This document shows, piece by piece, positions 9,600 through 52,634 of a stretch of DNA of 64,000 nucleotides. Origin of the DNA: a virus (lineage: Duplodnaviria; Caudoviricetes); the IMG/VR virus record IMGVR_UViG_3300037067_026010, positions 32,001 to 96,000 of that record. One strand, written 5' to 3'. A program made the translations under genes and the position numbers. A model generated the notes under the pieces. It was not told the origin of the DNA. It did not search any database and saw nothing but the letters and a program-made list of their open reading frames with translations. Positions within the stretch are counted from its first letter, which is position 1. Every line of letters starts with the position of its first letter.

Positions 9600-9959
9600 T
9601 TACGCGGCCGGTTGCGCGGCAGCGAACAAACTCAACACGGCATTCGCCAATTGCGGATCGCTTGCCGCCTCGGTGGCGGCTTGTTTGATCACGGCAGCGT
9701 CGGCAGGCGCCGTTTGGCCGCCGAGTTGCGCTTGCAACTGCGCAGCCGCGGCCTTCAGCAAATTTTTGCTGCTCGGCTGCGCCTGATGGTACGCCGTGCG
9801 CAATTGCTCTGCCATGCCCAACATTTGTCTGGCTTCCTCGGCGTCCGCCGGCTGGATGCCGTAATCCTGGGCAAGCTTCGCAAAGAAACACGGATTGTAA
9901 ACACGCTCCTGGATTGCGGCAAATGCCGTTTCGGGGGCGAGGGGTTGGGTAGCGGGCAT
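9600..9959 (-). CDS. Hypothetical head protein with KxA motifs
   Basis: 119 aa containing LKAAA and IKQAA. Confidence 0.65.
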   Translation of the reverse strand: MPATQPLAPETAFAAIQERVYNPCFFAKLAQDYGIQPADAEEARQMLGMAEQLRTAYHQAQPSSKNLLKAAAAQLQAQLGGQTAPADAAVIKQAATEAASDPQLANAVLSLFAAAQPAA

Positions 9960-10111
9960 GGCAAGGGTCTCCGGGTGAGAACGAAAATTTTACGAACTTT
10001 TGCGTAATTTACGGTCGGCGCACTTGTGGCAAGTTGGACAACATACGCGGTAGCTCGCTGGGAGACTTAGTACTGCATGGCGTACATTGTCCGAATTGTC
10101 AAAGAGCAGGT

Positions 10112-10149
10112 CTCGGACCTGGCGTCGTAAGTGCAACGCCAGGTCCGAG
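10112..10149. other. Perfect 14-bp stem-loop downstream of the capsid gene
   Basis: CTCGGACCTGGCGT-(10 nt)-ACGCCAGGTCCGAG. Confidence 0.7.
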
Positions 10150-10205
10150 GTAGGCATGTGTCCGAAATGTGCCATTCAAACGGTTAGGCACATTGATTGG
10201 CTTGC

Positions 10206-11135
10206 TCAACTGAAGTCTGCGCGGGCGATACCGCCGGAATGCCCGATGGCGCCACCGCAAGTCTCATAAGAAAAGAATTCGAGCATGAATGCTTCTCTTT
10301 TGACGTACATAGTGGTGTCTTCCAGCAGATACGATTTCCCGATAAATTTCGGGTCCGCGAACATGAAAATCGTGTCGTCGGGAACCAGATCGCGTTTGAT
10401 CGTGATAACCCAGGTGCAACCGAGGAAGTTGACCTCGGCCCAGCCGTTCTTGACGATATCTTGCGAGAAATCGCCGCCCATCTCGTCACGGCCGAACTTC
10501 ATCGGTTCCTTGATCGTGACATTGTTGATGAGGCAGGTGTGCACTTCGAGGTGCGACGGTCCGCGCGGCATGATTTTGAGCATGTCGCACAGCGATTCAC
10601 GCGTGATGCCGCCTTCGATGGTTTCCCATTGAACCTGGTTGCCGTTGTACGGCACCGGAACGTCGGGACCGATCATTACCGCGTTGCACGCGGTAATATA
10701 TTTAGAATCTTCTTCCGCCAGCATGTCCTTTATGGCATTGTCCGAAAGGACTTGGCGGATATCCATGACCCACGTACGCAATTCGTCGACGTCCTTCGTG
10801 AATCGCGGTGTAACGATTCGGTCGAACATGACGCGGTAGCGCGGGCCGCGGATGTAGATATTGATCGGCAGCGTGGCGAACGGGATCGAAATCGCTGCGG
10901 GGGAGTCCGGTTCTTTATCGACGACTTTAACCGGCTTGTCGGTATCGACTTGACGGTCAAGTTCGTCGTTGCTGAGCTGGAGCGGCGGCAAAATACGACG
11001 GTAAAAACCGTCTTCACGCATCTTGGTGCGCGTGAAGTCGTTGACCGCGTCGATGGCCTGTTTCTCCATGCCCGGCGTCGAGAGCTGCTCAAACAAAGTC
11101 TCGTTGAGCAGTTGCGTATCGGCTCGAGAAGCCAT
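10206..11135 (-). CDS. Major capsid protein (HK97 fold)
   Basis: About 309 aa from ATG 11135 (GGAGG RBS); RTKMREDGFYRRILPP...DIRQVLSDNAIKDMLAEEDSKY has the HK97-type spine-helix pattern; follows the protease, scaffold and decoration genes. Confidence 0.85.
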   Translation of the reverse strand: MASRADTQLLNETLFEQLSTPGMEKQAIDAVNDFTRTKMREDGFYRRILPPLQLSNDELDRQVDTDKPVKVVDKEPDSPAAISIPFATLPINIYIRGPRYRVMFDRIVTPRFTKDVDELRTWVMDIRQVLSDNAIKDMLAEEDSKYITACNAVMIGPDVPVPYNGNQVQWETIEGGITRESLCDMLKIMPRGPSHLEVHTCLINNVTIKEPMKFGRDEMGGDFSQDIVKNGWAEVNFLGCTWVITIKRDLVPDDTIFMFADPKFIGKSYLLEDTTMYVKREAFMLEFFSYETCGGAIGHSGGIARADFS

Positions 11136-11224
11136 GGGCTTAACCTCCATGTTGGTGTCAAAGCGCCCGTAATGAGCGCTGGGCTAACGGATTGAACAAA
11201 TAATGTGGCTTGAGCTACGGCCTA

Positions 11225-13617: not shown

Positions 13618-15081
13618 TTAGCTAGTACGATTATGCAGCATGGCCGCTTTTGCCGTCAAGATGAACTCGGATTCCGGAACGCTTGCGGCGTACGCGAGCG
13701 TATACAGTGCATATTCTTCCGCGAGCCGTTCGGCGGCGTCGCGTGGTTGTGCGAGCTTTACCAGATCTGGCGAACGTAGCGGCGCCGGCTCGTTGCGCAG
13801 CGCAGCTCTAATGCTGCGTTGCTGCAGGCCAGCCTCCGTCCAAGCGTAATCTTCCGCCTGTTTTTGCGCCCACAATCTGAACTGGGCATTCGTTGCATTG
13901 GCGGGCAGATACGGGTTGTGCTCGACGCGCTCGACGAAGTCCGGTCGGGCAATCAGGCGGGAGTAGATGCCCGGTAAATGCGGTCGGATAGCCCCTGCGA
14001 TCTTTTCCGAATTGCCACCGAGCATCGCCGACAAAAATTGCTCGAGAGGCCAGCAGATGCGCACGTCCGTCAAGGCCCGTAACACGGATGCAAATTTTTC
14101 TTGAAACAGCGGTGGCAGTGTCGGCAGTGCGGCCTCGCTGTGGACAGAGGCTGCAAATGCCATATCCACGTCCTGTTGTTCCATATCCACGAGTTGGTGG
14201 GCTGCCTTGAGCATACGGCGAACGATCGCAGGGTGCCGTGCTTCAATGCACAGGTCGTATGGCATGGTGACACCGAGACGCTCCGCCAATTCCGCTCCCG
14301 AGATGCAACTGGCAGATGCCGCCTTCAGCAATCCGGTCACGTAGGCAATGCGGTCGGCCGGGCGAAATACGTGTGAAATGTCAAAAAAGGTACCGTCGGG
14401 ATTATCCGCGTGCAGGTGATGCAATACGGATTGGCCGTCTTTCTCCATCTCGACCAGTTCGCCGATGTGGTGCTTTAAACCACCGGCCTTGCAGTGACCG
14501 CCATGGTCGATATGGTTGCAATACTCGGCACGCGTGGCAGCCTTATTGTAACACCAGCTGCACTGATCAAACGGGACGCGGATGGCCATCGATACCGGCA
14601 GTTCTTCATTCTTGGCCAGCTTTTCGAGTTCTTTGTCGGCTACCAAGCCGCCGTTGCGTCGCGCGGCCTCTTTTGAGCCGTTCAGCGCCACAAGTAATTC
14701 CACGCGGCGCATGGCCTCGTTGTATGCCGAGGCCTTTACGATCCCGTAGCTTTTCGAGGGATCTTTATTTTGATGATCCCGGTAAAACCTGGCGTGTTTT
14801 ACGAAGGTGGGGTGGCAACGGCGAAGCATCGCCGCGAGGAAGCCGTCGCCATTCCGGTTCGGGCCTACACCTTCCGTCGCACCCATTGCCAACAGGTGGA
14901 CCAGCGGTTCATCCGCCGCCGTTTTGATATGCAACAACTGTTCGAACAATGCAGTCGAAGCCCGCTTTTCCAAAATGCCGCGATCAGCACCGATCAGGCC
15001 ACGGCTGGAGATCTTCACCAGCTGCACGATAGGCTCTGCGAAACTCTGCGAACCACTGTCGATAAGCTTGATCATGCTCAT
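13618..15081 (-). CDS. Prohead (capsid maturation) protease, HK97/assemblin fold with Cys/His insert
   Basis: NRNGDGF, FYRDHQNKD (His), LPVSMAIRV (Ser), CSWC...YCNH, FFDISHVFRPAD; start ATG 15081 overlaps the upstream stop (ATGA). Confidence 0.8.
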   Translation of the reverse strand: MSMIKLIDSGSQSFAEPIVQLVKISSRGLIGADRGILEKRASTALFEQLLHIKTAADEPLVHLLAMGATEGVGPNRNGDGFLAAMLRRCHPTFVKHARFYRDHQNKDPSKSYGIVKASAYNEAMRRVELLVALNGSKEAARRNGGLVADKELEKLAKNEELPVSMAIRVPFDQCSWCYNKAATRAEYCNHIDHGGHCKAGGLKHHIGELVEMEKDGQSVLHHLHADNPDGTFFDISHVFRPADRIAYVTGLLKAASASCISGAELAERLGVTMPYDLCIEARHPAIVRRMLKAAHQLVDMEQQDVDMAFAASVHSEAALPTLPPLFQEKFASVLRALTDVRICWPLEQFLSAMLGGNSEKIAGAIRPHLPGIYSRLIARPDFVERVEHNPYLPANATNAQFRLWAQKQAEDYAWTEAGLQQRSIRAALRNEPAPLRSPDLVKLAQPRDAAERLAEEYALYTLAYAASVPESEFILTAKAAMLHNRTS

Positions 15082-22005: not shown

Positions 22006-25000
22006 CTACCAGCCCTTCGTAGCACCCGTCCGTCCGAACTCGGTACCGGCGGCTAACGCCGGTACATAACTGGTGCCGCTGGTGTCAGATACATCCCCAC
22101 GGGCCACACCCTTGAGCAGGCTTTTTTTCTGATCGCCAGCCAAGAACCTCGTCATCCAGTCCGGGTCTTGGGCGGCGTTGGCCACTCCACGGATCATTTC
22201 CGGGGCGAAGGGCGGCGGATCTCTGTGGGCAAATATGCGTGTAACGCCGTACCGCTCCATAGCCGGCAACATGGACGGCTGCACCTTGGTGCCTATCGTA
22301 TGCTGGAGCACCGGTCGTTCCAAATAGTAGCCGACGGCTTGTTTCGGCGGTGCGATGATGTGACCCGGCCGCGGCATCCATTCTCGCTCGAGTGTCTGGT
22401 ACGGCACGACGTCGTCCGGCGCCCAATGCCCGTATTCCTCGGCAAGCCGCACATGATTGATCAAACCGCGCGCCAGCAACTCGATGTTCCTTCGGTGCGC
22501 CGAGACACCGGAGTCCGCCAACATTTTACGAAAGGCATCCACAAAATACCGACGGCCTTCGCCGATGCCCTTGTGTTTGACTATTTCCGCCGGATTGGGC
22601 GTACCGCCGCTCAGGATATCGCCGGCTTCCGCGTAGTCCCCGACTTTGACCTGCAACTTGCGATCGGCCGGCACGTAATGGTCCTCGCCCTCGATCGTGA
22701 CGTACGAGCCACCGGCAGGTGCTTCGCGTATATGGTTGATGCGACCATCCTTTTGTGCATGGGTGGCGCCGCCGGGAAAGTGTTTGGGAACCTGAATCAG
22801 GGCGTCAATGCCTTTAAAACCGGCGATAGCTCCGGCTTCGGCTGCACCGGCTACTCCCCCGGTGTGCTTCGAGGAGTTGGAGACGATTAGGCCATTTGCC
22901 AGAACAAAGAGATGCGAAGCATGATCCACTTCGAGATCATAAGTCTGCTGTAAACCGACCGGTGCCATTTCTTCACGCAGTAACTTGTAATAAGCGTGTG
23001 GCCGGATTACTTGCCAATTAGCAAGTTTCTCGGCCAAAACACGCTGCTTAACCCCGTAAAGGGGAATGGCTGCGGCACAACGGCGGATGCCGTCTTCGTG
23101 GGTAATGTCAATTTGATAAAGCGTACGTTTTCGGCCACTGTTATTATGGTACGGCCCGGTAGCGTATACCCCGAAACGCCAAGCTAGCAATTCCCTTACT
23201 TTGCGTGCCATAGCTAGTGACGTAGACGCAAAACCAAGATAGGGCTTGGCTCTGTCCGCATAACAATCCGGGGTGAAAACCGAGCCATCTGTGACCATGA
23301 GCCCGCCCAACAGGGCTGCAATAGATCGATTGTTCCAGCTGTCGATGGCTGCCGGCAATTCTTTTTCGTGAGCATATTTACCAAGCATCTCGTGGTCATG
23401 CAACCAGCGTCGAATTGGGTTAAGATAACCTTCCTTTATGCGTCCCTGACTATCCCGCGGTGCCGACGCCTGCACGAGCTGGCTTACCCGATAATACCCC
23501 GTATGCCCGGCTAAGCGTGTTAATTTCAAATTCAAAGGGGACAATTCTGCTTTCAAATCTTCAATCAGACTTGGATCATAACAACTGAAATTGACGCCAT
23601 TCGCGGCGTCCGTGTAACAACCGTCTCCAAGTACTAATCCCACTAGGAGAGCCATTGGCTCATCAACGTAACGTGCATCGTCGTCAAAAGCAATGGGCAA
23701 TACGGCGCGCAGTCGCCGCGTACGCAGCCCGACAGGGTATTGCATCGGTACGCCGTTAAAAACGTCCGCCTTGCAATTGGACGTGTAACGGATACCGAGG
23801 ATTTTGTGCTCCACCGTAGAGACCAGTGTTACACCGCTGTGGTCTCGCCTGAAGGGGTACCGGAAAAATGTACGGTAGCATGACCGCAAGCCGTTGTCGA
23901 AACAGCGTAGTACCTGTACCGGGAAGGTACGCCCGGTTTCATCCGCACCCAAAATCCAATCACCTGGGCGGACACGCTCGATCGCTTTTGTTGTCCAATC
24001 CGCCATGCGCACCAGTGTGCCCTGCGCCAGACAGATTTGCGCCTGTGTGATCGGCGCCGACAGTGCATGCGCCGCCGCCACGCCAATGAAGTCGCCTGTA
24101 GGCGGTATGCCGCCTCGCTCGCGCCTTCCGGCGTCACGTGCATAGACACCGCCGTCGGATGGGCCGCCCACCGTCGTACTGCGCACCAGGATTTCGTCGA
24201 CGCCTTTATTTTTTAGATCTCGGAGTATTTTCGGAGTGAGTTCCGTATTGCGGTTGTAGCCGCCGACGGCATGCGCCAAAAGCGCCCCGGCATTGTCCGG
24301 GTCGTCCGTGGCTATGGGCATTCCGCGCGGCATGGCCTCGTCGTAGGGCCGGTCGTCGTCGAGAGCGGAGACGAGTAGTCGGTGATTTGCCGCCACGAGC
24401 TGTTTCCCGAGGAAACCGGCTTTTGCGGTGGAAGCCTTCAAGTCAAGGATCCCCTTTCGTGCCCCGTAAGCTCCTGCAAAGTACTCGACGGGCGATAAAC
24501 CCTGGCTGTAACTGCGCGTGACGGGGACGGGCAACACGTTGCCGCGATGGTCCGTATACAGCAAGTCCGCCCCCACCAGGCTCGAAAGAAACTGTTCCCC
24601 CTGCTTGCTGCGGGCTCCACTGGCCACTTGGCGCCACAACGGGTTGTCCGTCTCAGCCAGCTCTTTGAGCAGCCTGGGCAGCATCTTGTTCTTCGCCATG
24701 CCTGCCGCGTGGATAACTCTGTCGTTCCGTTCGCTTTCCGACAGTTTGGGGTCCGAGAGGATGCGCTGGATTTCCGAACGCAGCTCCAGCTGCATTTGCT
24801 TGGCTGCCAGGGTGCTCTGCAGATGCTTGAGGCCGAAAGAGTAGCCGCCGGTGCTGTAGGCCGCATCCCGGCCTACGTCCGACAGCTTTTTCGAGACTTC
24901 GCGATATTTGTCCGGATGCTTTTCCGCTACGACCTGCAGCAACTTCTTCTGCATCTTGCCGTCGAGTACGCGGTCGTAGTCGCGCATATCCTCCGGCAAG

Positions 25001-25041
25001 GCTTCGTTGACGAGCAGTTGTCCGACGGTGGTTTTGAGCAT
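22006..25041 (-). CDS. rpoC: Phage multi-subunit RNA polymerase, beta' C-terminal part, intein-containing
   Basis: Bridge helix EYFAGAYGARKGILDLKASTAKAGFLGKQL; trigger loop AAAHALSAPITQAQI-[intein]-SSKHTGG; HRRNIELLARGL; DWMTRF...LLKGVARG. Confidence 0.9.
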   Translation of the reverse strand: MLKTTVGQLLVNEALPEDMRDYDRVLDGKMQKKLLQVVAEKHPDKYREVSKKLSDVGRDAAYSTGGYSFGLKHLQSTLAAKQMQLELRSEIQRILSDPKLSESERNDRVIHAAGMAKNKMLPRLLKELAETDNPLWRQVASGARSKQGEQFLSSLVGADLLYTDHRGNVLPVPVTRSYSQGLSPVEYFAGAYGARKGILDLKASTAKAGFLGKQLVAANHRLLVSALDDDRPYDEAMPRGMPIATDDPDNAGALLAHAVGGYNRNTELTPKILRDLKNKGVDEILVRSTTVGGPSDGGVYARDAGRRERGGIPPTGDFIGVAAAHALSAPITQAQICLAQGTLVRMADWTTKAIERVRPGDWILGADETGRTFPVQVLRCFDNGLRSCYRTFFRYPFRRDHSGVTLVSTVEHKILGIRYTSNCKADVFNGVPMQYPVGLRTRRLRAVLPIAFDDDARYVDEPMALLVGLVLGDGCYTDAANGVNFSCYDPSLIEDLKAELSPLNLKLTRLAGHTGYYRVSQLVQASAPRDSQGRIKEGYLNPIRRWLHDHEMLGKYAHEKELPAAIDSWNNRSIAALLGGLMVTDGSVFTPDCYADRAKPYLGFASTSLAMARKVRELLAWRFGVYATGPYHNNSGRKRTLYQIDITHEDGIRRCAAAIPLYGVKQRVLAEKLANWQVIRPHAYYKLLREEMAPVGLQQTYDLEVDHASHLFVLANGLIVSNSSKHTGGVAGAAEAGAIAGFKGIDALIQVPKHFPGGATHAQKDGRINHIREAPAGGSYVTIEGEDHYVPADRKLQVKVGDYAEAGDILSGGTPNPAEIVKHKGIGEGRRYFVDAFRKMLADSGVSAHRRNIELLARGLINHVRLAEEYGHWAPDDVVPYQTLEREWMPRPGHIIAPPKQAVGYYLERPVLQHTIGTKVQPSMLPAMERYGVTRIFAHRDPPPFAPEMIRGVANAAQDPDWMTRFLAGDQKKSLLKGVARGDVSDTSGTSYVPALAAGTEFGRTGATKGW
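22876..24033 (-). mobile_element. Intein (386 aa) with LAGLIDADG homing endonuclease, in the beta' trigger loop
   Basis: Starts CLAQGTLVRMAD, has block B STVEH, LLVGLVLGDG and LLGGLMVTDG motifs, and ends HLFVLANGLIVSN followed by Ser. Confidence 0.9.
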
Positions 25042-25083
25042 GGTGCTATTTCCGGCTGTCGTACTGCAGCCGGTCGTACAAAA

Positions 25084-25099
25084 CGGTAATTAAGCACCG
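25084..25099 (+). repeat. 16-bp quasi-palindrome CGGTAATTAAGCACCG, copy 2
   Basis: Exact match; about 42 bp upstream of the beta'-C start. Confidence 0.9.
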
Positions 25100-25360
25100 C
25101 TATCCGATAAGCTGTGCCGTATCGAAGCGCACCTGGGCCAACGGCGTCTGCTCCGGCTGCGTGCAGATCACCGTTTGCGCGACGCCGAGCTGCCGAAGCA
25201 GTTTGTCGAAGTCCTTATCGCCGACCCGTGCGACGTAGTAACCCTGGGTATCCCACTCCATCGCCATAATCAGCGGATTTCGGTGTGTATCGTAGACGAC
25301 CACGCGCGTGCACGGAATGCGCTGCGGGGCCCCCAGGCCGTTATGTATTTCTGCGATCAT
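25100..25360 (-). CDS. Hypothetical protein between RNAP genes
   Basis: 86 aa with AAGGA RBS. Confidence 0.7.
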   Translation of the reverse strand: MIAEIHNGLGAPQRIPCTRVVVYDTHRNPLIMAMEWDTQGYYVARVGDKDFDKLLRQLGVAQTVICTQPEQTPLAQVRFDTAQLIG

Positions 25361-25373
25361 CGAAACGGTTTCC

Positions 25374-26096
25374 TTAACCTGCCGCCCTCGTACGGCTGCG
25401 CATTAACGCCGCCAAAGCCGCCGCCCCCGTCGTCGGCGACGGTATCTCGGCCTCCGTCCTATCGATGGGACGACCGACGTAGGCCACCTTTGCTGTGTCC
25501 TGCTGCGCCAACTCGGGGCTGGCCCCCTGCATCGGTTCGATCGCCTGGATGGCGCTTTGCCCTGCGCCTTGTCCCGGGCTTTGTCCCTGGCTCTGCCCCT
25601 GGCCTTGTGCCATCGGATCGTTTGGTCCGCCCGGCAGTGCGGATTCCACCGGCGGAGGCCCGAATTGCCCGGGCGGCATGACCAGGGCCTCCGGCGGCAT
25701 CTGAATTTGCAGTGAATTCATGATAGCCGTCAGCATTTGCTGCAGATTGTACATGCGGTAGTCGAGCTGCGTCATCATCTCTTCGGGCTTGCGCTTTACC
25801 GGAGCAGGAGCTGCGGCTTGTCCCGGCATTTGTCCCGGCATTTGTCCCGGCATTGGCGGAGGCATTCCCATCATAGCCGTCGGATCCATGCCCGGCATCG
25901 GAGCTGCCGGCGGCGGTGCGCCAGGCATTCCCGGAGCACCCCCCGCGCCTGCCATCGCTGCAGGGTCCTGTTGCATCGCCGCGGGGTCCTGCGGCATCGC
26001 CGCGCCGGCGCCCTCGGGCGGCTGAAAGGCCTCCTTGGTTTGTTGCTGCCAGACGCGTTCTCTGGCCAAAGCGAGCAGTATGGGGTTGACGCTCAT
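25374..26096 (-). CDS. Pro/Gln/Met-rich disordered protein with KxA sites
   Basis: 240 aa; TKEAF and AKVAY; MPGQ and QGQS repeats; AGGAG RBS. Confidence 0.7.
   Translation of the reverse strand: MSVNPILLALARERVWQQQTKEAFQPPEGAGAAMPQDPAAMQQDPAAMAGAGGAPGMPGAPPPAAPMPGMDPTAMMGMPPPMPGQMPGQMPGQAAAPAPVKRKPEEMMTQLDYRMYNLQQMLTAIMNSLQIQMPPEALVMPPGQFGPPPVESALPGGPNDPMAQGQGQSQGQSPGQGAGQSAIQAIEPMQGASPELAQQDTAKVAYVGRPIDRTEAEIPSPTTGAAALAALMRSRTRAAG
25818..25853 (+). repeat. 12-bp tandem repeat x3 (encodes MPGQ)
   Basis: TTGTCCCGGCAT repeated three times. Confidence 0.9.
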
Positions 26097-26115
26097 GGTT
26101 TACTCCTGCGATTCG

Positions 26116-33243: not shown

Positions 33244-33245
33244 TG

Positions 33246-38643: not shown

Positions 38644-38645
38644 AC

Positions 38646-41154: not shown

Positions 41155-42315
41155 TCAACCCCCGAAAAGCGATCCGACGATGCCGCGGATCATACCGCCC
41201 CAGAGACCCATCGTTTGTAGCTTTTCCTGTGCAGCCGGTGTCAGCCCGCCAAGGGCACCCAAGACGCCGCCAACGACGTGTGCCGTGGCAAGATCCACGC
41301 CAGCCGTCGCCAAGCCTTTGATGAAATGCTTTGGATTTAAATACTCTGGTCCACCGTATTGCGCCCCGATCCCACTGACGACCCCGGAGGCTGCCGCGGC
41401 CATCGCAGGCGGTGTACCCATCGGCTGTTCGTTCGTACCCCAAGGACTCTTCGTACCGTAAGGGTTGCTCCTCGCCGCCGAGTAATTGCCCACGTCATTC
41501 CAAATGGCCTGATTGAAAGCGTCCAGCGGCACGGCCGGCAGATTCGCCGCACCCGTTTCGCCGTAGCGTTCAGCAACTTTACGCATCCACGGGTCGCTAG
41601 GGAACTCGCGCAGGGCTGCGGCTGCCTTATCGAGAATGTGGTTTCTGCTGGTCTGAATGCGGTCGTTTTCCAGTTGCGCCTGTATGGCGGGATCCTTCGG
41701 CAAGGAGTTGAGCGACGATAGCCAACCGCGCGTCCAACCGACCGGTTTGCCTGATGCATCTTGCATCCTGGCGCGTGCCGATGCGGTCCAAATACCTGGA
41801 ACTGCCCCAAGACCTGCGCCGAGAAGTCCTAATGTTTTACGCAGCTTGCCTCGCCGCAGATATCGCTCCGGAAAAAGATGCTCCAGCATTGCCCCGGCAC
41901 CGTAGCCCAGGCCCCCTGCCAGTAAGCCGCCGCCCAGGGTCGTCGCCAAGGCATTGGGGCTTTCCCATGCCGCCTTATAGAACGGATTGAAAGATATGCC
42001 CAGTGCGTTTGCACGCTTGATATGCACCCAGTCGTCGCGGTTCGGTGGATGGCACTCTGCGACTACTTCAACGGTCTTTACGCCTGGCACCGCTTGCAGA
42101 GCATTATGGTATTTATTGTATACCGCCTGATCGTCGCCGTCGCTCAGCACTGCATGCACGGCCTTGTCTTCGGGATGCCAGAATAGATAACCGTAACCCG
42201 GATCGGCAGCCGGCGGAAGCTTTTGCAAAACGCGGCGCAAGCACATGACCTCGCCGGCCGCCTCCTTGACGAGCTGCGATACGCGTGCCGGTACGTCCTG
42301 CCAAGTGATGCTCAT
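41155..42315 (-). CDS. Glycine-zipper membrane protein with KxA sites
   Basis: VKEAA, IKRA, DKAAA and RKVA; LGGGLLAGGLGYGAG and VVGGVLGALGG. Confidence 0.7.
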   Translation of the reverse strand: MSITWQDVPARVSQLVKEAAGEVMCLRRVLQKLPPAADPGYGYLFWHPEDKAVHAVLSDGDDQAVYNKYHNALQAVPGVKTVEVVAECHPPNRDDWVHIKRANALGISFNPFYKAAWESPNALATTLGGGLLAGGLGYGAGAMLEHLFPERYLRRGKLRKTLGLLGAGLGAVPGIWTASARARMQDASGKPVGWTRGWLSSLNSLPKDPAIQAQLENDRIQTSRNHILDKAAAALREFPSDPWMRKVAERYGETGAANLPAVPLDAFNQAIWNDVGNYSAARSNPYGTKSPWGTNEQPMGTPPAMAAAASGVVSGIGAQYGGPEYLNPKHFIKGLATAGVDLATAHVVGGVLGALGGLTPAAQEKLQTMGLWGGMIRGIVGSLFGG

Positions 42316-42572: not shown

Positions 42573-43313
42573 CTACGGGCTGCCGGTTGTGGCCGCACAT
42601 ATTTCTGTTGTGTTCGCATGGGTGGTAAAAGTGTTAATAGAGGGGGATAACCAGTCCGGAGCGCGTCTTGCCGATAATAATTCCGGATCTATGTTACGAC
42701 ACTGTTTGTGTAAGCGGCTTACCGCTGCTCGGATTAACGCATTCACGTAATGCCGCGAGCATTGCAATTCTTGCGTTATCTCGCCACGCGACATGCCGGC
42801 CAGCCGCATTTCGAGAGCCTGGCGCTGCCGAAGCGACAGCCTGGTAACCGCAATGCGGAAAGCGTGCCGACTTTCCTGCTGCAAAAGACGGCGTATCGGC
42901 GGATCCTCGTACCAGCCCTGTACCGAGGTTGCATAAATTTGCCGGGGCGGCCGGCGGCGACTGTTTGGCCTGCGGACATACTGTTCCGTGCCTTGCTGCT
43001 TCCTGGCGTTTTGAATGGCCTGGCGAATCCAATAGGCTGCATAATTTGCAAAACGGTGTCCCCGACCCTCCTGCCAGCGTTCGATAGCCACTATCAGCCC
43101 CAAGATGCCGTCTTGAAAAAGATCTCGTAGAAGTTCACGAGGTTGTCGCAGGCCGCGGGCTATGTGCCAGACAAGACGCTGATTGCACAAAATAAGTTGC
43201 TCTCTAGCCTTGCCACAACCGTTGTGGGCGGCCCGTAGATAGGCTAATTCTTCGTCCGCCGTCAAAGGCGTTGCCGTAGTCGCATTATCGAAGACGCACT
43301 TCCCTGCCGTCAT
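42573..43313 (-). CDS. Sigma70-family RNA polymerase sigma factor
   Basis: Region 1.2 LTADEE; region 2 AREQLILCNQRLVWHIA...DLFQDGILGLIVAIERW...RFANYAAYWIRQAI; region 4 LSLRQRQAL...HTH. Start ATG 43313 (ATGA overlap). Confidence 0.88.
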   Translation of the reverse strand: MTAGKCVFDNATTATPLTADEELAYLRAAHNGCGKAREQLILCNQRLVWHIARGLRQPRELLRDLFQDGILGLIVAIERWQEGRGHRFANYAAYWIRQAIQNARKQQGTEQYVRRPNSRRRPPRQIYATSVQGWYEDPPIRRLLQQESRHAFRIAVTRLSLRQRQALEMRLAGMSRGEITQELQCSRHYVNALIRAAVSRLHKQCRNIDPELLSARRAPDWLSPSINTFTTHANTTEICAATTGSP

Positions 43314-44284
43314 GGTTTTCGCGGTAATTGCGGTAAAAGTTGCACAGGTTCGTGTTGCAACAGGCGATCGACCGGGTGCTGGACCATAGCGGACCCTCCG
43401 GCCAGATATGCCTGCGTCTGCCGTATCGAGCGTTGCGGATCCATCGCATTCTGCATCCGGTCCCACGTTTTGGCTTCGGCGATCGCCCTGTCGCCACGCT
43501 GTTTTATCGTAGCCGCGTGACGTTGTAAAGCGCCGAGTAGTCCTTCACCGGCGTTATAAACCGGTTTGCGTCCGCGCAGCAGCTCCGCCCCATGTCCGCG
43601 CGCTGCCTCGGCGTAGAAACTCTGCGCCGCTTTTACCGGTGCGGGCGGATTCAAAAAATCTTCAACGTCGCCAACGGTTTTCAGCCTCGTTGCACTGTCC
43701 GGATCAATATCGAGATCGATCCAATGCTCCGCCAGTTCCGACGGATCCGCGCCGTAATCTTTCGCGTAGTCAGCTTCGCGATAGACCTGATCCGCCGGCA
43801 CATTAAATCGCTGCATCAGCAGTCGCTGCAACGCCTTATTTTGCAATGGCGTCTGCTCCAGCGTCACCGCCGGCTTATTCGATACCAAATCGGATACGGC
43901 CCCGAGGGCGATGTCGTCCGCCGCGCCGGTCGCCAAGGCCATCGGCGATTTCAATAGGCCGAGTACGCTTGTTTTAGTCAGCGTTTTGGAGATATCCGCC
44001 GGTACATGTGTCTTGGGCAGATGAAAGCGATAGCCGGTCGGTCGATGGGTAATGCCATAGAACCGCTGCAGCTCCTCGTCGATGTACCAGTTTTCCGGAT
44101 TGGAAAGCATCAACTTGCGCAGCTGCGCGCTTTTGGCGGCATAAGCACGGTTGTCGGAGAGCTGCTGAATAAACTGTAGCTGCTCAAGAAGTGGGTGCCC
44201 TGCATCGGGCGGCAGTGCGGCCGTTTTCACAAAAGCCGCCGCGCACGCTTCTACTGCGGCACATTCCATAATGGTGCATGCCAT
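43310..44284 (-). CDS. Modular KxA-punctuated protein containing an acyl-carrier-protein-like domain
   Basis: Start ATG 44284; VKTAA, TKTS and VKAA; ACP-like LQRLLMQRFNVPADQV...DYGADPSE...LKTVGDVEDFL. Confidence 0.65.
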   Translation of the reverse strand: MACTIMECAAVEACAAAFVKTAALPPDAGHPLLEQLQFIQQLSDNRAYAAKSAQLRKLMLSNPENWYIDEELQRFYGITHRPTGYRFHLPKTHVPADISKTLTKTSVLGLLKSPMALATGAADDIALGAVSDLVSNKPAVTLEQTPLQNKALQRLLMQRFNVPADQVYREADYAKDYGADPSELAEHWIDLDIDPDSATRLKTVGDVEDFLNPPAPVKAAQSFYAEAARGHGAELLRGRKPVYNAGEGLLGALQRHAATIKQRGDRAIAEAKTWDRMQNAMDPQRSIRQTQAYLAGGSAMVQHPVDRLLQHEPVQLLPQLPRKP

Positions 44285-45023: not shown

Positions 45024-48000
45024 CTAGGGCGTCCAGTCCTCGTGCGGCGCCAGCAATACCGGCGCGCGATGCGCACCTGAAGCAAACTGGCCTTGCGAGC
45101 GAATTTTCGCAACGCGGCCGCGATAGATATCCGGCTCTCGCCATAGCTCGCGCCGCAGCTCGTCCGAGATTCCCGTACCGACTCTGCCGACGGTTTTACC
45201 GCCAGGCGTCAGCGCGTACTCGAAACCGCCGGCGCCGATGCCGCGGTACTTGCCGCGTCCGGGATAAACGCCGGTAATGTGCACATCAGATTCTTCAAGC
45301 AGCTTGCCTTTCTGCGGCACGCCTGTTGCCGGATGCAATACGATGCCCTCTCGCGTCAACGGGTGCTTGCTGCTGCGAATGCGATCCCACAGCTGTTGTG
45401 CAGATTCGGGCGTTTCCGCAGCCTCCGAAAGATGGAAGTAGTCCGCAGGCAAATGCGGCAGTACTTGCTCTAGGAGTTTGCGGCGCTCGGCGCGCGGTAG
45501 ATCCTGCACGGGTTGTTTGCCCAACTGTGGAATGTCGTACAGCATATTGCGCAACTGGATATTCCCGGCGCGCTGCTTTTCCAAGGCATTAGCGACGGTA
45601 GCATTGAGAATACCGCCCAATTCGTGCGCCGGCAGCACTTCGGGTTTCTTGCCTTCAGGATTTCGAAGTCCGTAAAGCTCGCCTTTCAATACCGTGCCTC
45701 GTAAGGCTTTCGGGATCGGCGTGGACGGCCTGCCACCAAACATTCGCTCGGAATATACGATAGGCTGGCCATTGTTTTTTGCCGTACGATACGAGGTCAC
45801 TTCGATACCGTCCTTGAGCAATTGCACGAGGCTGCTGGCACCGTCTACTTTGGCTTCGGCGGTCGACCCCGGCTGCATTTTGGCGAGAACGTTCTCGATC
45901 TGCTGCGCGGGTATTTTTTTGAAGTGGACTTTTTCGTGCTGTGCTCCCACCGGCACCGTCGGCGTCGTATTGACGAGTAGCCAGTTCTTCGATTTCGGAT
46001 CGCGCGGTTTGAGCAGTACGAACCGCTCCGGAAAGCGCGCGCTTGCTTGAGTAAAATGCACGGCGTCCGGTGTGACCTTCGTAATCAGCACTTGCCCCTC
46101 TTCCGCCTTCGAGACCGTGCCTTCTCCATAACCTTTTTCTATCCGGCCCTCGAAATCTTTGTAGCTATAGTCGTGCAGCGGTTGATGTACCGCGAGCCGT
46201 TTCTCGCCCGGTTTGGGCATCTCCTTGCGCATGGCCCAACTGTGTAGGCCGGAGGGGTCGCCGATTCGCAGATCAAAGTGCCGTTTTGCCCGTGCCGCAT
46301 CGTGCAATTGCCGCAGCAACGTGTAAACGTTTCCGGCCCGTAAATCCGTCAGTGGCTCTCCGTAATTCGACCGATCCGGTAAACCTGGAATTGGCGCTGC
46401 AGTCTTTGCCAGCGCGGGGGAGGGCGTTTGCACGAGTTCCAACATGCGCCGTAACAATTGCTGTCTGTCCTCGCCCTGAATATTTTTCAATGCCGCTGCG
46501 TCCCGATTTTCCGGAGTGACTTTTGCCGGATCAATCTTGCCATCGGCTGGTGCGGCAATCTGAGTCTTTTGAAGCCATGCATTCCAGGCCTTGTCCGCAG
46601 CTTCAGGCGTATCCACCTGTTGGCCGGTGGCTTTCACGTACTGCCGTTTGGCCTCGGCAAGGCGCGGATCGAGCTCATTTGGCGTGCCTGCGTAGGCATA
46701 TCGGCTTTCAGCCGTAGGCGCCAGCCACAGCCCTCGAGCGTTGTTGGCAGCGAAAGGCAGTCCTTCCGGTTTGGCCCGCTCCACCGGTATAAGCGGCGTA
46801 GTCGCTTCCTCGTCCGATTGCCGCAAGTAGTTTGGTCCCAAGGCCGCATGCGTTAATTCGTGCTCCAAGAGCGCTTGAGGTGCGCCAGGCGCCAGACTGA
46901 CTGTGCCCGTGCGGTGGTCCATCATACCCTGTCTACCGACCAGTGGCGTGTCCTTGGTGCCGGCGATTTCCTTATCCAGCGCCGACGGACGCCACCGACT
47001 AAAGCGTGGGTTATGTCCTGGTACTGCCAATTGTGCCTGTGCTTTCTGCACGGCCGCGTCGAGGCCACCCGGAGCTTTCGCATAATAGGGTGCAATTTGC
47101 TGTCGCAGCGTTGTCGTAAAATCCTTCGGCGCCGGCGTCACCGTTGCTCCGGCCGGGGGTACAACGGCCGGCTTGGCACCGGCGCCTGTCGGCCCCTTCA
47201 CCGGGGCCGCGGTACTGCTGGGAGTACCATTGCCAGAGGCAGGCGCAGCGCTGGCCCCTTCCGTTGCCGGAGCTTTTGGCGTAGTTGCCTCGGCAGCGGT
47301 TTTGGCCGACGGTTCGGCATTGCCGGTAGGCCACCACGCTTCAATGGCCAAATGCTGGTATGTCTGCCCGTCATATTCGCGATTACGCCAGCGCTTTTCG
47401 AACTCCGCAACCGACAGATAGCCATATTGCTTGCGGTCCCCGGCCATGGCGGGATCGGCAAAGTAAACGCTCTCGTCATCCATGCCGATGACGACGCTGT
47501 AGTGGCCGCTCTGCAGCTGCTTATAGTCCGCAGGGTCTCCCCAGGCTTGCAGCGAGACGATGACCGGATGCCGCTTATCGAGAATAGCACGCAACCCGGC
47601 GAGATCCAGGTTCTCGTGAAAGAGCACCTCCAACCCGAGCTTCCGTGCCGTTTGCACAAGATCCTCCGGATCCGTGCCCTTCTGCTTGCCGCTTTCCGAA
47701 CGTTCCGCCAATTGCGCTTCGGTGACGCTCAGCCCGTTGCCTTCCGCCACTTCGCGTAATGCACCGGGACCGCAGGTGCAATCGGTCTGCTGCCGAAGAT
47801 GCGGTACAGGCGCTTGGACGTTTGCGTCTCGCATGCCGATCGGTTCTTCGGCATCCTCGGGGCCGCGCGCCGACGGGCCGTTGCCGTCAGCTGCTGCGGG
47901 TCCGCCGTGGCTACCGGGCATCAGATTCTGATCTAAGGGCACTTGATCGGCCTGTCGGGTAACGCGGGTGCTGGTCATTCGCGGATCGTCCGTGCACATC

Positions 48001-48398
48001 TTGCTATCCAGGGCCGCCGCCTTCGTAACCTTCCCATCCTTGGTCCAATCGCCGAACTCGGCGAGCGTCATTGCCGTTACGCTGCCGAGACCCTTCCAGC
48101 CCTTCGAGTAGTTCGCCAGATAGACCTGCCGTGCTTCGTCCTCCGACAGACATCGATAATGCATTTGTGCTCGTCGAACTTGCCGGTGGCCGGAGCGTTC
48201 TGGTTGACGACATGCACCAGCTCGCTTTCCAGATGCGGACCTATGAAAACATCTAAATGGTCTTTGTCGCGGCCGAGGATGCCCTTGAAATAACCATAAT
48301 CGTTGGCCATGGTTATAGACCAGGTTTTGCCGTTCCTGTCCGTGCCGGAGCGTTCGCTGCCCTTGGGATTTTCGATGGCTATGCCAAAACCGGCCCAA
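45024..48398 (-). CDS. Polyvalent protein, main part: end of iPPase-like domain, C39 peptidase, HExxH metallopeptidase, LigD phosphoesterase, ATP-dependent DNA ligase
   Basis: QQTDCTCGPGAL...GHYSVVIG...FADP (C39); EHELTH; HFDLRI...LHSWAMRK...RLAVHQPLHDYSYKDFEG (LigD PE); EAKVDG, LKGEL, LYDI, EGIVL and VGTGISDELR (ligase). The true N-terminus is in another frame upstream of about 48154. Confidence 0.85.
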   Translation of the reverse strand: MGRFWHSHRKSQGQRTLRHGQERQNLVYNHGQRLWLFQGHPRPRQRPFRCFHRSASGKRAGACRQPERSGHRQVRRAQMHYRCLSEDEARQVYLANYSKGWKGLGSVTAMTLAEFGDWTKDGKVTKAAALDSKMCTDDPRMTSTRVTRQADQVPLDQNLMPGSHGGPAAADGNGPSARGPEDAEEPIGMRDANVQAPVPHLRQQTDCTCGPGALREVAEGNGLSVTEAQLAERSESGKQKGTDPEDLVQTARKLGLEVLFHENLDLAGLRAILDKRHPVIVSLQAWGDPADYKQLQSGHYSVVIGMDDESVYFADPAMAGDRKQYGYLSVAEFEKRWRNREYDGQTYQHLAIEAWWPTGNAEPSAKTAAEATTPKAPATEGASAAPASGNGTPSSTAAPVKGPTGAGAKPAVVPPAGATVTPAPKDFTTTLRQQIAPYYAKAPGGLDAAVQKAQAQLAVPGHNPRFSRWRPSALDKEIAGTKDTPLVGRQGMMDHRTGTVSLAPGAPQALLEHELTHAALGPNYLRQSDEEATTPLIPVERAKPEGLPFAANNARGLWLAPTAESRYAYAGTPNELDPRLAEAKRQYVKATGQQVDTPEAADKAWNAWLQKTQIAAPADGKIDPAKVTPENRDAAALKNIQGEDRQQLLRRMLELVQTPSPALAKTAAPIPGLPDRSNYGEPLTDLRAGNVYTLLRQLHDAARAKRHFDLRIGDPSGLHSWAMRKEMPKPGEKRLAVHQPLHDYSYKDFEGRIEKGYGEGTVSKAEEGQVLITKVTPDAVHFTQASARFPERFVLLKPRDPKSKNWLLVNTTPTVPVGAQHEKVHFKKIPAQQIENVLAKMQPGSTAEAKVDGASSLVQLLKDGIEVTSYRTAKNNGQPIVYSERMFGGRPSTPIPKALRGTVLKGELYGLRNPEGKKPEVLPAHELGGILNATVANALEKQRAGNIQLRNMLYDIPQLGKQPVQDLPRAERRKLLEQVLPHLPADYFHLSEAAETPESAQQLWDRIRSSKHPLTREGIVLHPATGVPQKGKLLEESDVHITGVYPGRGKYRGIGAGGFEYALTPGGKTVGRVGTGISDELRRELWREPDIYRGRVAKIRSQGQFASGAHRAPVLLAPHEDWTP

Positions 48399-48520
48399 GA
48401 AACGTGCCCCTTCGCATAATTACCGGCTTCGATCTGCCCCGGCGTGGGCTCGGTATTTACGGCGGCGCGGGCTTGCCGGAGTTCTTTTTCGTCCAACGCT
48501 CTCTTTTCGCGCACCAGCAT
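48077..48520 (-). pseudogene. N-terminal part of the polyvalent protein (inorganic-pyrophosphatase-like domain), frameshifted at about 48154
   Basis: PTPGQIEAGNYAKGH...IENPKGSERSG...YGY...DKDHLDVFIG...FDEHK; the domain continues in the other frame (SEDEARQVYLANYSKGWKG). Confidence 0.75.
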
Positions 48521-49991: not shown

Positions 49992-50228
49992 TTACGCTGG
50001 CAAACCAGCGGAACTTTTATAAGGGTGGTCCCGACGCTGTAACGCGGTAATTAAGCACCGCGCAGCCTCGCAGGCCTCGGCGCAGTGTTGTTGCAACTGC
50101 AGCCCTTCGTAAATGTGGTAGCCGTCGCTACGAGCGTAAGCCGTCGTATTGCCGATGACTTGCGTCACGCCGTGGCTTAGCAAGCAGGTAAACGCCTCCA
50201 GGAGGTCATCCGCACATTCCGCTGCCAT
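49992..50228 (-). CDS. Hypothetical protein
   Basis: 78 aa with AGGAG RBS. Confidence 0.55.
   Translation of the reverse strand: MAAECADDLLEAFTCLLSHGVTQVIGNTTAYARSDGYHIYEGLQLQQHCAEACEAARCLITALQRRDHPYKSSAGLPA
50045..50060 (+). repeat. 16-bp quasi-palindrome CGGTAATTAAGCACCG, copy 4
   Basis: Exact match with arms extended to CGCGGT/ACCGCG; inside the 3' end of 49992..50228. Confidence 0.9.
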
Positions 50229-50244
50229 GTCGGACTCCTGTATA

Positions 50245-50512
50245 AAAGCGCGGGCTGGATGCCCACAACGGGGCCGCTCGCACCCCGTTTATGCTCGATC
50301 GTTAGGCCGGAGCAACCTCCCGTCAGGTATAAGGGCCGGCTATGGGCATCCGGGATCGCAGGCGTATCGGGTTGACCTGGCCGGCAGGAAAGTAAATCCG
50401 GCCGGGGCGATCCTACGCACGCCATCCGCTTATGAGCCAGTTGGCACGCGTCCCTGAGCCGCTGGCCCTACCGGCGGACGGGTGCGATTCGTCCATTCCG
50501 GCGCCACCTCGG
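50245..50512 (-). ncRNA. Candidate structured non-coding RNA
   Basis: About 270-nt gap with nested stems: 50257-65/50343-51, 50267-73/50283-89, 50353-59/50407-13 and 50376-84/50398-406. Family not recognised; strand assumed from the operon. Confidence 0.4.
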
Positions 50513-50516
50513 CTGC

Positions 50517-52634
50517 TCACCCGCTAACATGCATCGCTAAATCTTTCAACCGCGTCGCTTCCTCCAGCGACATGCCTCCGTTCGAGGCAATACGCTCTGG
50601 TGTTGCTGCGCTGCTTTGCAGCAAGGCTAAGTTGTCCGGCGGCAATCCGCGTACTAATGGCATCAGTTGCGCGTCCGGCAGTTGCAGCAGCTGCGCCCGT
50701 GCCTGCGGGTTGTTCAGCACTTGATCCATTTTATCCGCATCCACACGGCCGTCGGGGCCAATTAACTGCGTAACGTCGAATGCTTGCCCAGGCGCAGCGG
50801 CAGGGCTGGTCGATGTCCCAGCTTGTGCAGTCGGTGCTTTGGGCGCAGCTTGCCCGCCAAAGAGTTGCCGGGCTTGGGCATAAAGCCCCTGTGCGCCCTG
50901 TTGTGCGCCCTGGCCAAAAACTCCGCCAAGTGCACCGCCGGCTCCGGCCACGCCCAAGCCGAGGAGCGTCATCAGTACGCTACCTATGCCGCCTTCTCCG
51001 CCTAATAACGAGATGAGTCCGACGAGGCCCAACGGCAGACCGATGCCGAGCATCCATTTGGATTCTGTCGGCAGCTGCCCCCACATCTCCATAAACCCCT
51101 GTGGGTCTTGCTTTGCCATATCCGGATTGGCCTTGGCCAGGTTCTCCTGGCTCGGTTGCACCAAATCCCCGGGCAGCTTGCCCTGTTCCAACATGGCGCG
51201 ATCGATACCGTAGCGTTTGGCGATTATCGCCCGCTGATCTTGCGGAATTTGTATATTCTTGGCCAGTTCCATGGCTGTCGCCGAATCCCCTTTGCTCAAG
51301 GCATCGTGCGCTTGCCGCAATAACGCCTGCTGATCCGGCGCTATTTGTGCATCGGCAGTTTGCTCCGCGGTTTCTTCGCCTCGAATGCGCTGGTAATTCG
51401 TGTGTTCCTCGGGCGTCATGGACACGGATTGCGGCGCTGGCGACGGTTGTTGCTTTTGCTTCGAGAAATTCATCGCCTGCTGCAGCGAATCTTCATCATC
51501 TTCACGCCACAGGGTGTTCTTTGCGTTCTCGCGACGGAGATCGAGTATCTCCTTATTTCGCTCGGCGATACGCTGCTGTGCGTCGGGCGCAACCGGCACT
51601 GTAATATTGGCCGGCGGCTTCGGTGCGGGTGCCGGGGCCGGCGTTGGCACTGGTGCTGGTGCTGGTGCTGGTACCGGCGGGGTGGCAGACGGTGGTTTCA
51701 CTGCCGGTGTCGTCGCGCCGACAGCAGGAGACACCGGAGGATGCACCATATTCGGCAGATCGGGCAAGGCTGCTCCGGTAGCTGCGGCCGGATCGGGCTG
51801 CAAAAACCCTGCTGCGGTCTTTTCGGTCCGTCGGCGGCGCGATTTCATCTGGTTGTATAGCCCGTAGAGACCAGCAGCACCTAAACCAGCACCTGCGTAC
51901 GCCGGCCAGTATTTCGAAAGATGCTCCGTTACACCCCCCGCAGGTGCCGGTGCTGAAACTTCTCCGGCTCGTTGGGAATCCGCTGCAGACGTTTGCGGAG
52001 CGGCTGCTGGAGGATTATCACCGCCCATCAGCGAAGCCGCACCCAGGCCCCCTGCCGTCATGGCAGCCCCGCTCATTAAATGCCCTGGCAGTGCCCTGGT
52101 AAAGGCAGGGGCCGCTGCTAATGCGGCAGGTACCGCTGCGGGGACCGCTGCGGCCGCCCCGGCTAACAGCCCGGTAGCGCCACTTACGCGTCCGGCGGTA
52201 CGTAATGCCGCTTCGCCGCGCGAATCAACATCGGGGATGTTCGGATTTGGCGAGCGCCAGGGATTGTACCACTTGTTTAGATAATAGCCCCAGCTCGGGT
52301 CGACGTCGTCGAGGCTGCATTTGACGAGCTCCGCCCTGAAATCCGGCATCGCTGCAGCCGCTTTCTGAAGGCCGCAGCCGATTTCCTGTTCGCTGCAGCC
52401 GGTTTCGCCGCATGCCTGCAAGAACCCGGCAAACAACGGATACCGGGAGCGAAAACGTCTTAATGCAGCCTGTTTGGCTTGCTGCTTGAACTTATCTCCG
52501 CTCCGATCGCGGCCGGAAACGCTTTCCCACGCCTGTTCGCCGCTTAATGCCGGCAGACTCGGTACCTTGTAACCGGCGGGTCTTTCACCGAAGGCAAACG
52601 GTCGCGTCGCCATAGTGCCCAAACTGCTCGGCAT
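50517..52634 (-). CDS. Large glycine-zipper/Pro-rich virion internal protein with KxA sites
   Basis: AKQAA, QKAA, VKCS and EKTAA; several Gly-rich TM-like segments; ATG 52634 has a GGAGG RBS. Confidence 0.7.
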   Translation of the reverse strand: MPSSLGTMATRPFAFGERPAGYKVPSLPALSGEQAWESVSGRDRSGDKFKQQAKQAALRRFRSRYPLFAGFLQACGETGCSEQEIGCGLQKAAAAMPDFRAELVKCSLDDVDPSWGYYLNKWYNPWRSPNPNIPDVDSRGEAALRTAGRVSGATGLLAGAAAAVPAAVPAALAAAPAFTRALPGHLMSGAAMTAGGLGAASLMGGDNPPAAAPQTSAADSQRAGEVSAPAPAGGVTEHLSKYWPAYAGAGLGAAGLYGLYNQMKSRRRRTEKTAAGFLQPDPAAATGAALPDLPNMVHPPVSPAVGATTPAVKPPSATPPVPAPAPAPVPTPAPAPAPKPPANITVPVAPDAQQRIAERNKEILDLRRENAKNTLWREDDEDSLQQAMNFSKQKQQPSPAPQSVSMTPEEHTNYQRIRGEETAEQTADAQIAPDQQALLRQAHDALSKGDSATAMELAKNIQIPQDQRAIIAKRYGIDRAMLEQGKLPGDLVQPSQENLAKANPDMAKQDPQGFMEMWGQLPTESKWMLGIGLPLGLVGLISLLGGEGGIGSVLMTLLGLGVAGAGGALGGVFGQGAQQGAQGLYAQARQLFGGQAAPKAPTAQAGTSTSPAAAPGQAFDVTQLIGPDGRVDADKMDQVLNNPQARAQLLQLPDAQLMPLVRGLPPDNLALLQSSAATPERIASNGGMSLEEATRLKDLAMHVSG

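Follow-up and report, generated by a model that had tools for sequence, protein, structure and literature searches.

A position-conserved K-x-A motif in the head-module proteins of an uncultured large phage is a predicted cleavage site of its prohead protease

The window analyzed here is a stretch of 64,000 nucleotides, bases 32001 to 96000 in the genome of an uncultured phage (210,569 bp; IMG/VR record IMGVR_UViG_3300037067_026010). The subject of this analysis is a short motif, K-x-A, which recurs in the capsid, scaffold-like, and prohead protease proteins of the window and in a multi-enzyme polyvalent protein. Nearly all window genes lie on the minus strand. In the order of transcription, glycosyltransferase genes are followed by a poorly annotated set that includes a sigma factor, a staphylococcal nuclease (SNase) homologue, and a ferritin-like gene, and then by the polyvalent gene, the RNA polymerase genes, the head module, and the tail genes. 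The head module extends from the gene at 19517 down to the gene at 9600, next to the tail genes with the sheath, and includes the protease, the scaffold, two small genes, and the capsid protein in this order. Most head-module proteins had no match in Pfam and PHROGs, and a megablast search of 20 kb against a phage collection returned no match. Among cultured phages, the nearest relatives are Salmonella phage Arash and Vibrio phage D69, which are distant (27% capsid identity) and show the same gene order, with a protease-to-capsid arrangement that matches the window. A search with the capsid protein yielded 80 related loci on viral contigs of about 30 to 235 kb (capsid identity, 64 to 87%), and 16 relatives were fetched in full for statistics on their 61-kb structural region. 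The same type of search yielded no loci with the polyvalent protein as the query and three loci with a piece of the RNA polymerase. The features are listed in Table 1, and unnamed proteins are referred to by the first coordinate of their gene.

Table 1. Features of the window and K-x-A sites within them; K numbers are residue positions of the motif lysine
Feature	Coordinates	Strand	Remarks
Tail-side genes	854..9567	-	Includes 955-aa sheath, 1436-4303 (phrog_279 tail sheath); negative control
Small Ala-rich head-module protein, 119 aa	9600..9959	-	K28 9867-9878; K69 9744-9755; K92 9675-9686
Major capsid protein	10206..11150	-	phrog_2522 major head protein
Small head-module protein, 141 aa	11852..12277	-	4 K-x-A; K101 (11966-11977) ahead of conserved C-terminal segment
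Scaffold-like protein, 407 aa	12348..13571	-	10 K-x-A, 7 of them followed by A/S
Scaffold main sites	K22 13497-13508; K200 12963-12974; K382 12417-12428	-	
Prohead serine protease, 487 aa from Met at 15081	13618..15081	-	Predicted from fold match and neighboring genes
K-L-A, K442 of 487, near protease C terminus	13747..13758	-	Low-confidence loop before last two helices
K-A-A-S, K253 of 487-aa protease, in linker	14314..14325	-	Predicted self-release site behind catalytic domain
Core-like protein, 692 aa	15952..18030	-	12 K-x-A; K41 17899-17910; K78 17788-17799
Conserved head-module protein, 791 aa	19517..21892	-	K25 21809-21820; K160 21404-21415; K550 20234-20245
RNA polymerase beta/beta' genes with inteins	22006..33245	-	Pfam domains; control of similar Lys/Ala content
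121-aa protein	34962..35327	-	K-T-A at K30 (35229-35240)
386-aa protein	41155..42315	-	K17 42256-42267; K100 42007-42018
Protein with probable start at Met112 of ORF (44284)	43310..44284	-	K-T-A 44216-44227, end of predicted 22-residue leader
Polyvalent multi-enzyme gene	45024..48520	-	Pfam: InPase, C39-like peptidase, unknown domain, LigD 3'-phosphoesterase, ATP-dependent DNA ligase
Polyvalent K-x-A sites	48494-48505; 48012-48023; 47292-47303; 46395-46406	-	
709-aa low-complexity protein	50517..52646	-	K-x-A-A at K58 52464-52475, K95 52353-52364, K276 51810-51821

The motif was counted against expectations from shuffles within each protein and from shuffles inside 20-residue blocks. In the whole genome, K.A[AS] occurred 77 times against 38.5 in shuffled sequences (z, 6.3), and K.AA occurred 62 times against 27 (z, 6.7). 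Both figures were unchanged with the 20-residue-block shuffles, which shows that local richness in Ala and Lys is not the explanation. The control patterns AA.K, KA.A, A.KA, K..AA, R.AA, and E.AA gave observed-to-expected ratios of 0.85 to 1.3, a range that also held when Gln replaced Lys, and E.A[AS] was at expectation. Among single proteins, the observed versus expected counts of K-x-A-[AS] were 7 versus 1.17 in the scaffold, 5 versus 0.6 in the protease, 5 versus 0.5 in the 19517 protein, 3 versus 0.27 in the 11852 protein, and 7 versus 0.6 in a gene outside the window. When six head families were pooled, the enrichment over shuffles rose from 2.84-fold for K.A to 6.5-fold for K.A[AS] and 13.4-fold for [FLMI].K.A[AS]. 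In these families, R.A, K.S, K.G, and A.K were at or below 1, indicating that Lys and Ala are both specific, and tail and other families were near 1. The site logo showed Phe/Leu/Met/Ile at P5, Glu/Val/Ile at P4, Lys at P3, any residue at P2, Ala at P1, and Ala/Ser at P1'.

A preliminary description of this stretch had reported K-x-A(A/S)-like sites in at least 14 proteins. Every site that it quoted is present in the sequence, and exactly 14 open reading frames (ORFs) in 9600 to 52646 carry at least one K-x-A-[AS]. The capsid site and several family-conserved sites lack A or S after K-x-A; the core of the motif is K-x-A, with preferences at P5, P4, and P1'. The sites had also been described as far less conspicuous in tail and glycosyltransferase proteins. 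The counts bear this out: the tail-side genes hold a single K-x-A-[AS], located in the gene at 5255 to 6514, and the glycosyltransferases (53465 to 59162) hold none. The tail-side genes had only 0.10 to 0.32 K-x-A per 100 amino acids, with a ratio to shuffles of 0.92, and no conserved K-x-A was found in six tail-side families. The RNA polymerase showed 15 K-x-A against 17.3 expected. The enrichment over a composition-matched background is confined to the head module and is absent from the tail, RNA polymerase, and glycosyltransferase proteins. Apart from these counts, Hint/intein and LAGLIDADG domains interrupt the RNA polymerase beta/beta' genes (22006 to 25041 and 26116 to 33729), and a third intein-bearing ORF lies at 36976 to 38739; relatives have much shorter versions of these genes.

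Next, positional conservation was examined in seven head-module alignments of 42 to 65 sequences each, with 30 to 50% identity except for the capsid protein. K-x-A was the commonest conserved residue pair at a spacing of 2, with 27 positions against 10 for the next pair, whereas K and A at spacings of 1, 3, and 4 gave 2 positions each and A-x-K gave 3. Among conserved Lys columns, 26 of 65 belonged to K-x-A in the head families, compared with 3 of 55 in the RNA polymerase. The flanks of conserved K-x-A were less conserved than those of other conserved Lys residues (0.55 versus 0.70; P = 9e-4) and more prone to indels (P = 7e-3). In all 16 relatives, K.A[AS] in the structural region exceeded shuffles by 1.9- to 3.7-fold (z, 3.9 to 11.6), with flat controls. 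The density of K-x-A per 100 amino acids was 2.6 to 3.7 in the 9600, 11852, scaffold, protease, and 15952 families, 1.1 to 1.4 in the 19517, 34962, and 41155 families, and 0.1 to 0.4 in the tail-side genes and the 18030, 11225, and 34237 families.

The individual head proteins carry the motif at characteristic places. The capsid protein has a single K-Q-A at 11052 to 11063, which starts at K30 from the first ATG (K25 in the preliminary description) and is invariant in 65 of 65 distinct relatives. Scaffold relatives have 5.3 K-x-A-[AS] per protein on average; K22 is retained in 13 of 14 relatives, K200 in 40 of 53, and K382 in 32 of 53, and beyond K382-A-A lies a basic C-terminal tail of 23 residues. 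In the 11852 family (3.68 K-x-A per 100 amino acids across orthologues), K101-x-A is kept in 52 of 55 relatives between variable flanks, and the 9600 family has three conserved K-x-A (2.97 per 100 amino acids). All 12 K-x-A of the 15952 protein fall within its first 310 residues; K41 is present in 52 of 53 relatives and K78 in 53 of 53, and orthologues average 5.5 K-x-A-[AS]. The C terminus of this protein is extended by about 230 residues rich in Glu, Arg, and Gln (15952 to 16700), a part that its relatives (about 465 amino acids) do not have. The 19517 protein is a homologue of Arash gp218, a protein detected in virions. Its K25 and K160 are invariant in 16 sequences, and both lie in segments (1 to 35 and 129 to 191) with a predicted local distance difference test (pLDDT) score below 50. 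A Foldseek search with the 19517 model gave no credible fold match.

The motif reappears, in a sharper form, in the distant cultured phages Arash and D69. Their capsid proteins have K-E-A at residue 27 of the N terminus, in the place that the site occupies in the window capsid protein, the protease homologues have 7 to 8 K-x-A, and the scaffold-like neighbors have 8 to 11, mostly in the form [LMI]-x-K-x-A-[SA]. In most of their tail-side proteins, the motif is at or near expectation. Distant protease homologues in two further phages showed a mild excess of K-x-A: Bacillus phage G (gp19, 8 versus 2.4 expected; gp21, 7 versus 2.8) and Mycobacterium phage Alice (gp90, 19 versus 8.8). With a pooled z of about 3, this excess is not robust to multiple testing.

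The gene adjoining the scaffold encodes the putative prohead protease. An AlphaFold model (mean pLDDT, 79.7) divides it into a catalytic domain (residues 16 to 245), a disordered linker (245 to 271), and a helical C-terminal domain (285 to 486). Residues 16 to 245 of the model matched T4 gp21 (5jbl_B) with a Z score of 9.4 over 142 aligned residues (root mean square deviation, 3.3), varicella-zoster virus (VZV) protease with 8.6, and pseudorabies virus protease with 7.8, while unrelated entries scored about 5. The best three Foldseek matches had probabilities of 0.97 to 0.99. According to this model, the catalytic domain has the gp21/assemblin fold. H103 and S164, a putative catalytic pair, are invariant among 47 sequences, with His before Ser as expected. 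The sole PHROG match of the protein was phrog_2774, whose function is unannotated. The domain also contains four invariant Cys residues (C174, C177, C188, and C197; 14490 to 14562), which form a zinc-ribbon-like insert at residues 174 to 197; we know of no such insert in T4 gp21. The protease has 13 K-x-A against 3.2 expected, and 11 of these are conserved across 16 relatives. The best conserved is the linker site at K253, which lies inside a segment with pLDDT below 50 (245 to 265). Its K and A are shared by 62 of 64 relatives, against a conservation of about 30% in the columns on either side. The K442 site is kept in 12 of 16 relatives and also falls in such a segment (441 to 446).

In the polyvalent protein, the four tabulated sites are located, in order, 16 residues before InPase, at the end of InPase, where a Pro/Ala/Thr linker begins after the C39-like domain (Pfam, 1.2e-12), and ahead of the phosphoesterase. 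A fifth site, K-P-A, lies in a Pro-rich linker, and another precedes Met79 in a part of the ORF that is probably untranslated. No K-x-A was found inside the Pfam-defined domains or in the last 456 residues. The relatives recombine the blocks of this protein with 2H phosphoesterase (2H-SAK), GerD-like, SNF2 helicase, and PNKP-like domains. Despite these differing architectures, the border sites recur in five relative genomes (G004, G005, G006, G007, and G016): the border before LigD_N and the border after InPase each carry K-x-A in four genomes, and the border after the ligase carries it only where further domains follow (G004 and G016). The N-terminal part of the protein matches segments of DarB-like, minor-head-protein, and virion structural PHROGs. 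These matches, together with the broad virion proteome of Arash, suggest that the polyvalent protein may be packaged. Regarding the gene model, the longest start of the ORF at 45024 to 48398 adds an Arg/His/Lys-rich stretch (48165 to 48398) with an out-of-frame look, and the true start is likely in the upstream frame.

The 41155 family has an N-terminal globular part followed by the K100 site and a Gly-zipper-like, membrane-like C-terminal half; the site is kept in 7 of 9 relatives, immediately before an indel-rich junction. In the 43310 to 44617 ORF, the first 110 residues (44285 to 44617) are Arg/Lys-rich and appear out of frame. In the 34962 family, K-x-A occupies one column in 9 of 12 sequences. 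The 50517 protein, for which one partial relative was found, has 3 K-x-A-[AS] versus 0.97 expected. A ferritin/Dps-like gene (48538 to 49038), a sigma-70 family factor (42573 to 43466), and a staphylococcal-nuclease homologue (39601 to 40227) lie among the candidate cargo genes.

A motif that is order-specific, confined to the head module, conserved in position in about 80 relatives and in two distant cultured phages, located beside a protease of the gp21/assemblin fold, and placed at the domain borders of a shuffled multi-enzyme protein shows the signatures expected of a prohead-protease code. From the statistics, conservation, and placement of the motif and from the protease fold, we infer that Φ-x-K-x-A|(A/S), where Φ is Phe, Leu, Met, or Ile, is probably the site of the prohead protease, which would be a new specificity in a known kind of enzyme, and that this enzyme probably also cuts packaged polyproteins. 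By analogy with T4, SPN3US, P1, and herpesvirus assemblin, the cut is placed after Ala, with Lys at P3 and Ala at P1, but it may instead fall after Lys, or only some of the sites may be used. Signal peptidase I, with its A-x-A rule, was considered as the cutter and rejected because Lys at -3 does not fit this rule. In the proposed mechanism, the protease would remove about 32 residues from the capsid N terminus inside the procapsid, cut the scaffold to release its 23-residue C-terminal tail, and degrade the small core proteins (9600, 11852, and 15952) to peptides. By cutting at its linker site, the enzyme would release its catalytic domain, and it would afterward destroy itself. It would also clip the short leaders and interdomain linkers of copackaged proteins, so that the pyrophosphatase, the C39-like peptidase, the unknown domain, and the phosphoesterase-ligase unit of the polyvalent protein would become separate modules.

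Several observations weigh against this interpretation. Nine of the 11 family-conserved K-x-A of the protease are in confidently folded parts, five of them in the catalytic domain, and in the predicted model of the 19517 protein K550 and K596 lie in helices (K550 at a helix end), which means that not every K-x-A can be an accessible cut site. The nine folded-part sites may represent late self-destruction sites, and late self-destruction is known for T4 gp21 and HK97 gp4. The protease had no Pfam peptidase match (S77, S78, and S21 models; E ≤ 0.01), and its family profile searched against PDB sequences matched no solved protease. The polyvalent gene is split in the assembly by a 1-nucleotide frameshift near 48150 to 48165, inside the InPase domain, so that the N-terminal 100 residues of InPase are in one frame (48155 to 48484) and the rest are in the frame of the 45024 to 48398 ORF; the shift may be a true lesion or an error of the assembly. 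Finally, virion preparations of Arash contained its protease homologue and scaffold-like proteins, although 116 proteins are listed for these preparations.

The interpretation given in the preliminary description is partly supported. Its proposal of K-x-A as a protease code retains the order-specific, head-confined, and conserved motif beside a gp21/assemblin-fold protease, but it must accommodate the many conserved protease sites in folded parts. The sites map onto domain borders in the polyvalent protein, and those 9 of 11 in the protease lie in confidently folded parts. The four polyvalent sites said to separate domains are all at borders, but the first (K-R-A) is in the upstream frame of the frameshifted gene. 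The polyprotein idea gains from border sites that persist as the domain order changes. For the prediction of virion cargo, K-x-A-[AS] by itself is too loose, because 19 of the 39 strict-motif sites of the genome fall outside the 9.6- to 52.6-kb region. The densest carrier beyond the head module is a plus-strand 418-aa ORF outside the window (L131:579-1832; genome 204078 to 205334), which has 12 K-x-A versus 2.8 expected and 7 K-x-A-[AS] (P = 2e-6) and had no Pfam or PHROG match in the PHROG scan.

The published Arash virion proteome neither confirms nor refutes processing. It gives protein-level coverage from a preparation described without mention of a gradient step. The 86.6% coverage of the Arash capsid protein was considered as a sign of a lost N terminus and rejected, since 116 proteins are reported, one of them at 100% coverage with 2 unique peptides, and no gradient is mentioned.

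The presence of conserved sites in folded helices of the protease and the 19517 protein, and the report of Arash scaffold-like and protease homologues in virion preparations, would also fit a docking or assembly motif. Such a motif would hold proteins of the head interior to one shared partner, for instance the scaffold, the inner capsid surface, or the C-terminal helical part of the protease, with few sites cut at most; another short motif is in fact shared by unrelated proteins in the same genome. We regard docking as unlikely, because the sites are at leader ends and domain borders, where they persist when the surrounding domains are shuffled, and in disordered, indel-prone, weakly conserved contexts. 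Moreover, the scaffold, the protease, and the capsid N terminus are classical protease substrates, and a fixed P3 and a fixed P1 are the rule in this protease family (L/I-x-E in T4; V/L/I-x-A|S in herpesviruses). Cleavage of K-x-A by another protease, either the C39-like peptidase of the polyvalent protein acting on itself or a host protease, is quite improbable. The C39-like domain is present, and Iyer et al. reportedly proposed in 2017 that peptidases embedded in polyvalent proteins self-process them. However, C39 peptidases are known to cut after Gly-Gly, and the highest motif density is seen in the scaffold, the prohead protease, and the capsid leader, all encoded at or beside the prohead protease gene. 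In two relatives (G008 and G009), the C39-like module stands alone as a small ORF, and the motif excess is equal. That K-x-A is a functionless by-product of Ala/Lys-rich helical or low-complexity sequence is largely refuted, although the carriers are Ala-rich (14 to 28% Ala in several) and some sites are in predicted helices, because z stays above 6 with composition-keeping within-protein and 20-residue-block shuffles, the reversed and permuted motifs show no excess, positions are conserved while flanks drift at 30 to 45% identity, and the motif is not enriched in the RNA polymerase, whose Lys/Ala content is similar.

Cleavage by the prohead protease, if true, would have wider consequences. 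More tentatively, a large and mostly uncultured clade of 140- to 230-kb phages, including Arash and D69, might share a herpesvirus-like protease that cuts after Ala, with K-x-A as the modular junction of capsid-loaded polyproteins that are cut inside and that join enzyme domains for the repair of DNA ends and further early functions. In such a system, cargo could be swapped at the linkers and the injected proteome could be read from sequence. If the K-x-A rule holds, sequence alone would predict, in hundreds of uncultured large phages, the mature form of the capsid protein, the core proteins that are disposable, and the proteins that are packaged and probably injected; in the window, this cargo would be one polyprotein with ligase, 3'-phosphoesterase, pyrophosphatase, and C39-like peptidase domains. 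The cultured relatives Arash and D69 make the K-x-A code directly testable. Our limited literature search found no described K-x-A prohead motif. The prohead proteases of T4, SPN3US, and P1 with mapped sites cut after Glu. A K-x-A rule would be a new specificity in the gp21/assemblin fold and would move phage enzymes closer to the Ala|Ser rule of herpesviruses.

The predicted system was compared with known ones. The window protease has the fold of T4 gp21, and its predicted code is likewise short, with constant residues at P3 and P1. As in T4, motif copies occur in the capsid N terminus, in the scaffold or core proteins, within the protease, and in the short leaders of proteins that, in the window, are predicted to be packaged. 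The protease differs from gp21 in its predicted code (Ala instead of Glu at P1 and Lys instead of Leu/Ile at P3), in its length of 487 aa, which includes an insert with four Cys residues and a large C-terminal domain of helices, and in having no sequence-level match to known peptidase families. Herpesvirus assemblin is also a fold relative, with Ala before and Ser/Ala after the predicted cut and a protease domain joined to a helical C-terminal part by a linker that is predicted here to be cleavable. By motif position only, the K253-A-A-S linker site resembles the assemblin release site, and the scaffold K382-A-A-S, 23 residues from the C terminus, resembles the maturation site. In contrast to assemblin, P3 is Lys rather than aliphatic, the scaffold is a separate gene, and many more substrates are predicted.

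phiKZ gp175 and SPN3US gp245 recognize (S/A/G)-x-E or A-x-E and cut after Glu (PMC10052503, PMC5694885); the code of SPN3US is A-x-E (PMC10052503). The window resembles these jumbo phages in its many predicted head substrates, repeated motif copies in predicted propeptides, predicted self-cleavage of the protease, and a virion-associated RNA polymerase in relatives, but the fixed residues are Lys and Ala rather than Glu at P1. All identified gp245 cleavages except self-cleavage yield N-terminal propeptides (PMC10052503, PMC5694885), whereas several of the sites predicted in the window separate the domains of a single long protein. In phage P1, processing occurs after E120 (PMC9024508). Like the polyvalent proteins of phages and conjugative elements and the packaged DarB-type proteins of phage P1 (PMC9024508), the window protein combines several enzymatic domains, and its relatives show them in changing combinations (InPase, 2H phosphoesterase, C39, LigD phosphoesterase, ligase, and SNF2 helicase); its N-terminal part matches segments of DarB-like and minor-head-protein PHROGs. 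It would differ from them in its predicted processing by the prohead protease at K-x-A linkers after its presumed packaging.

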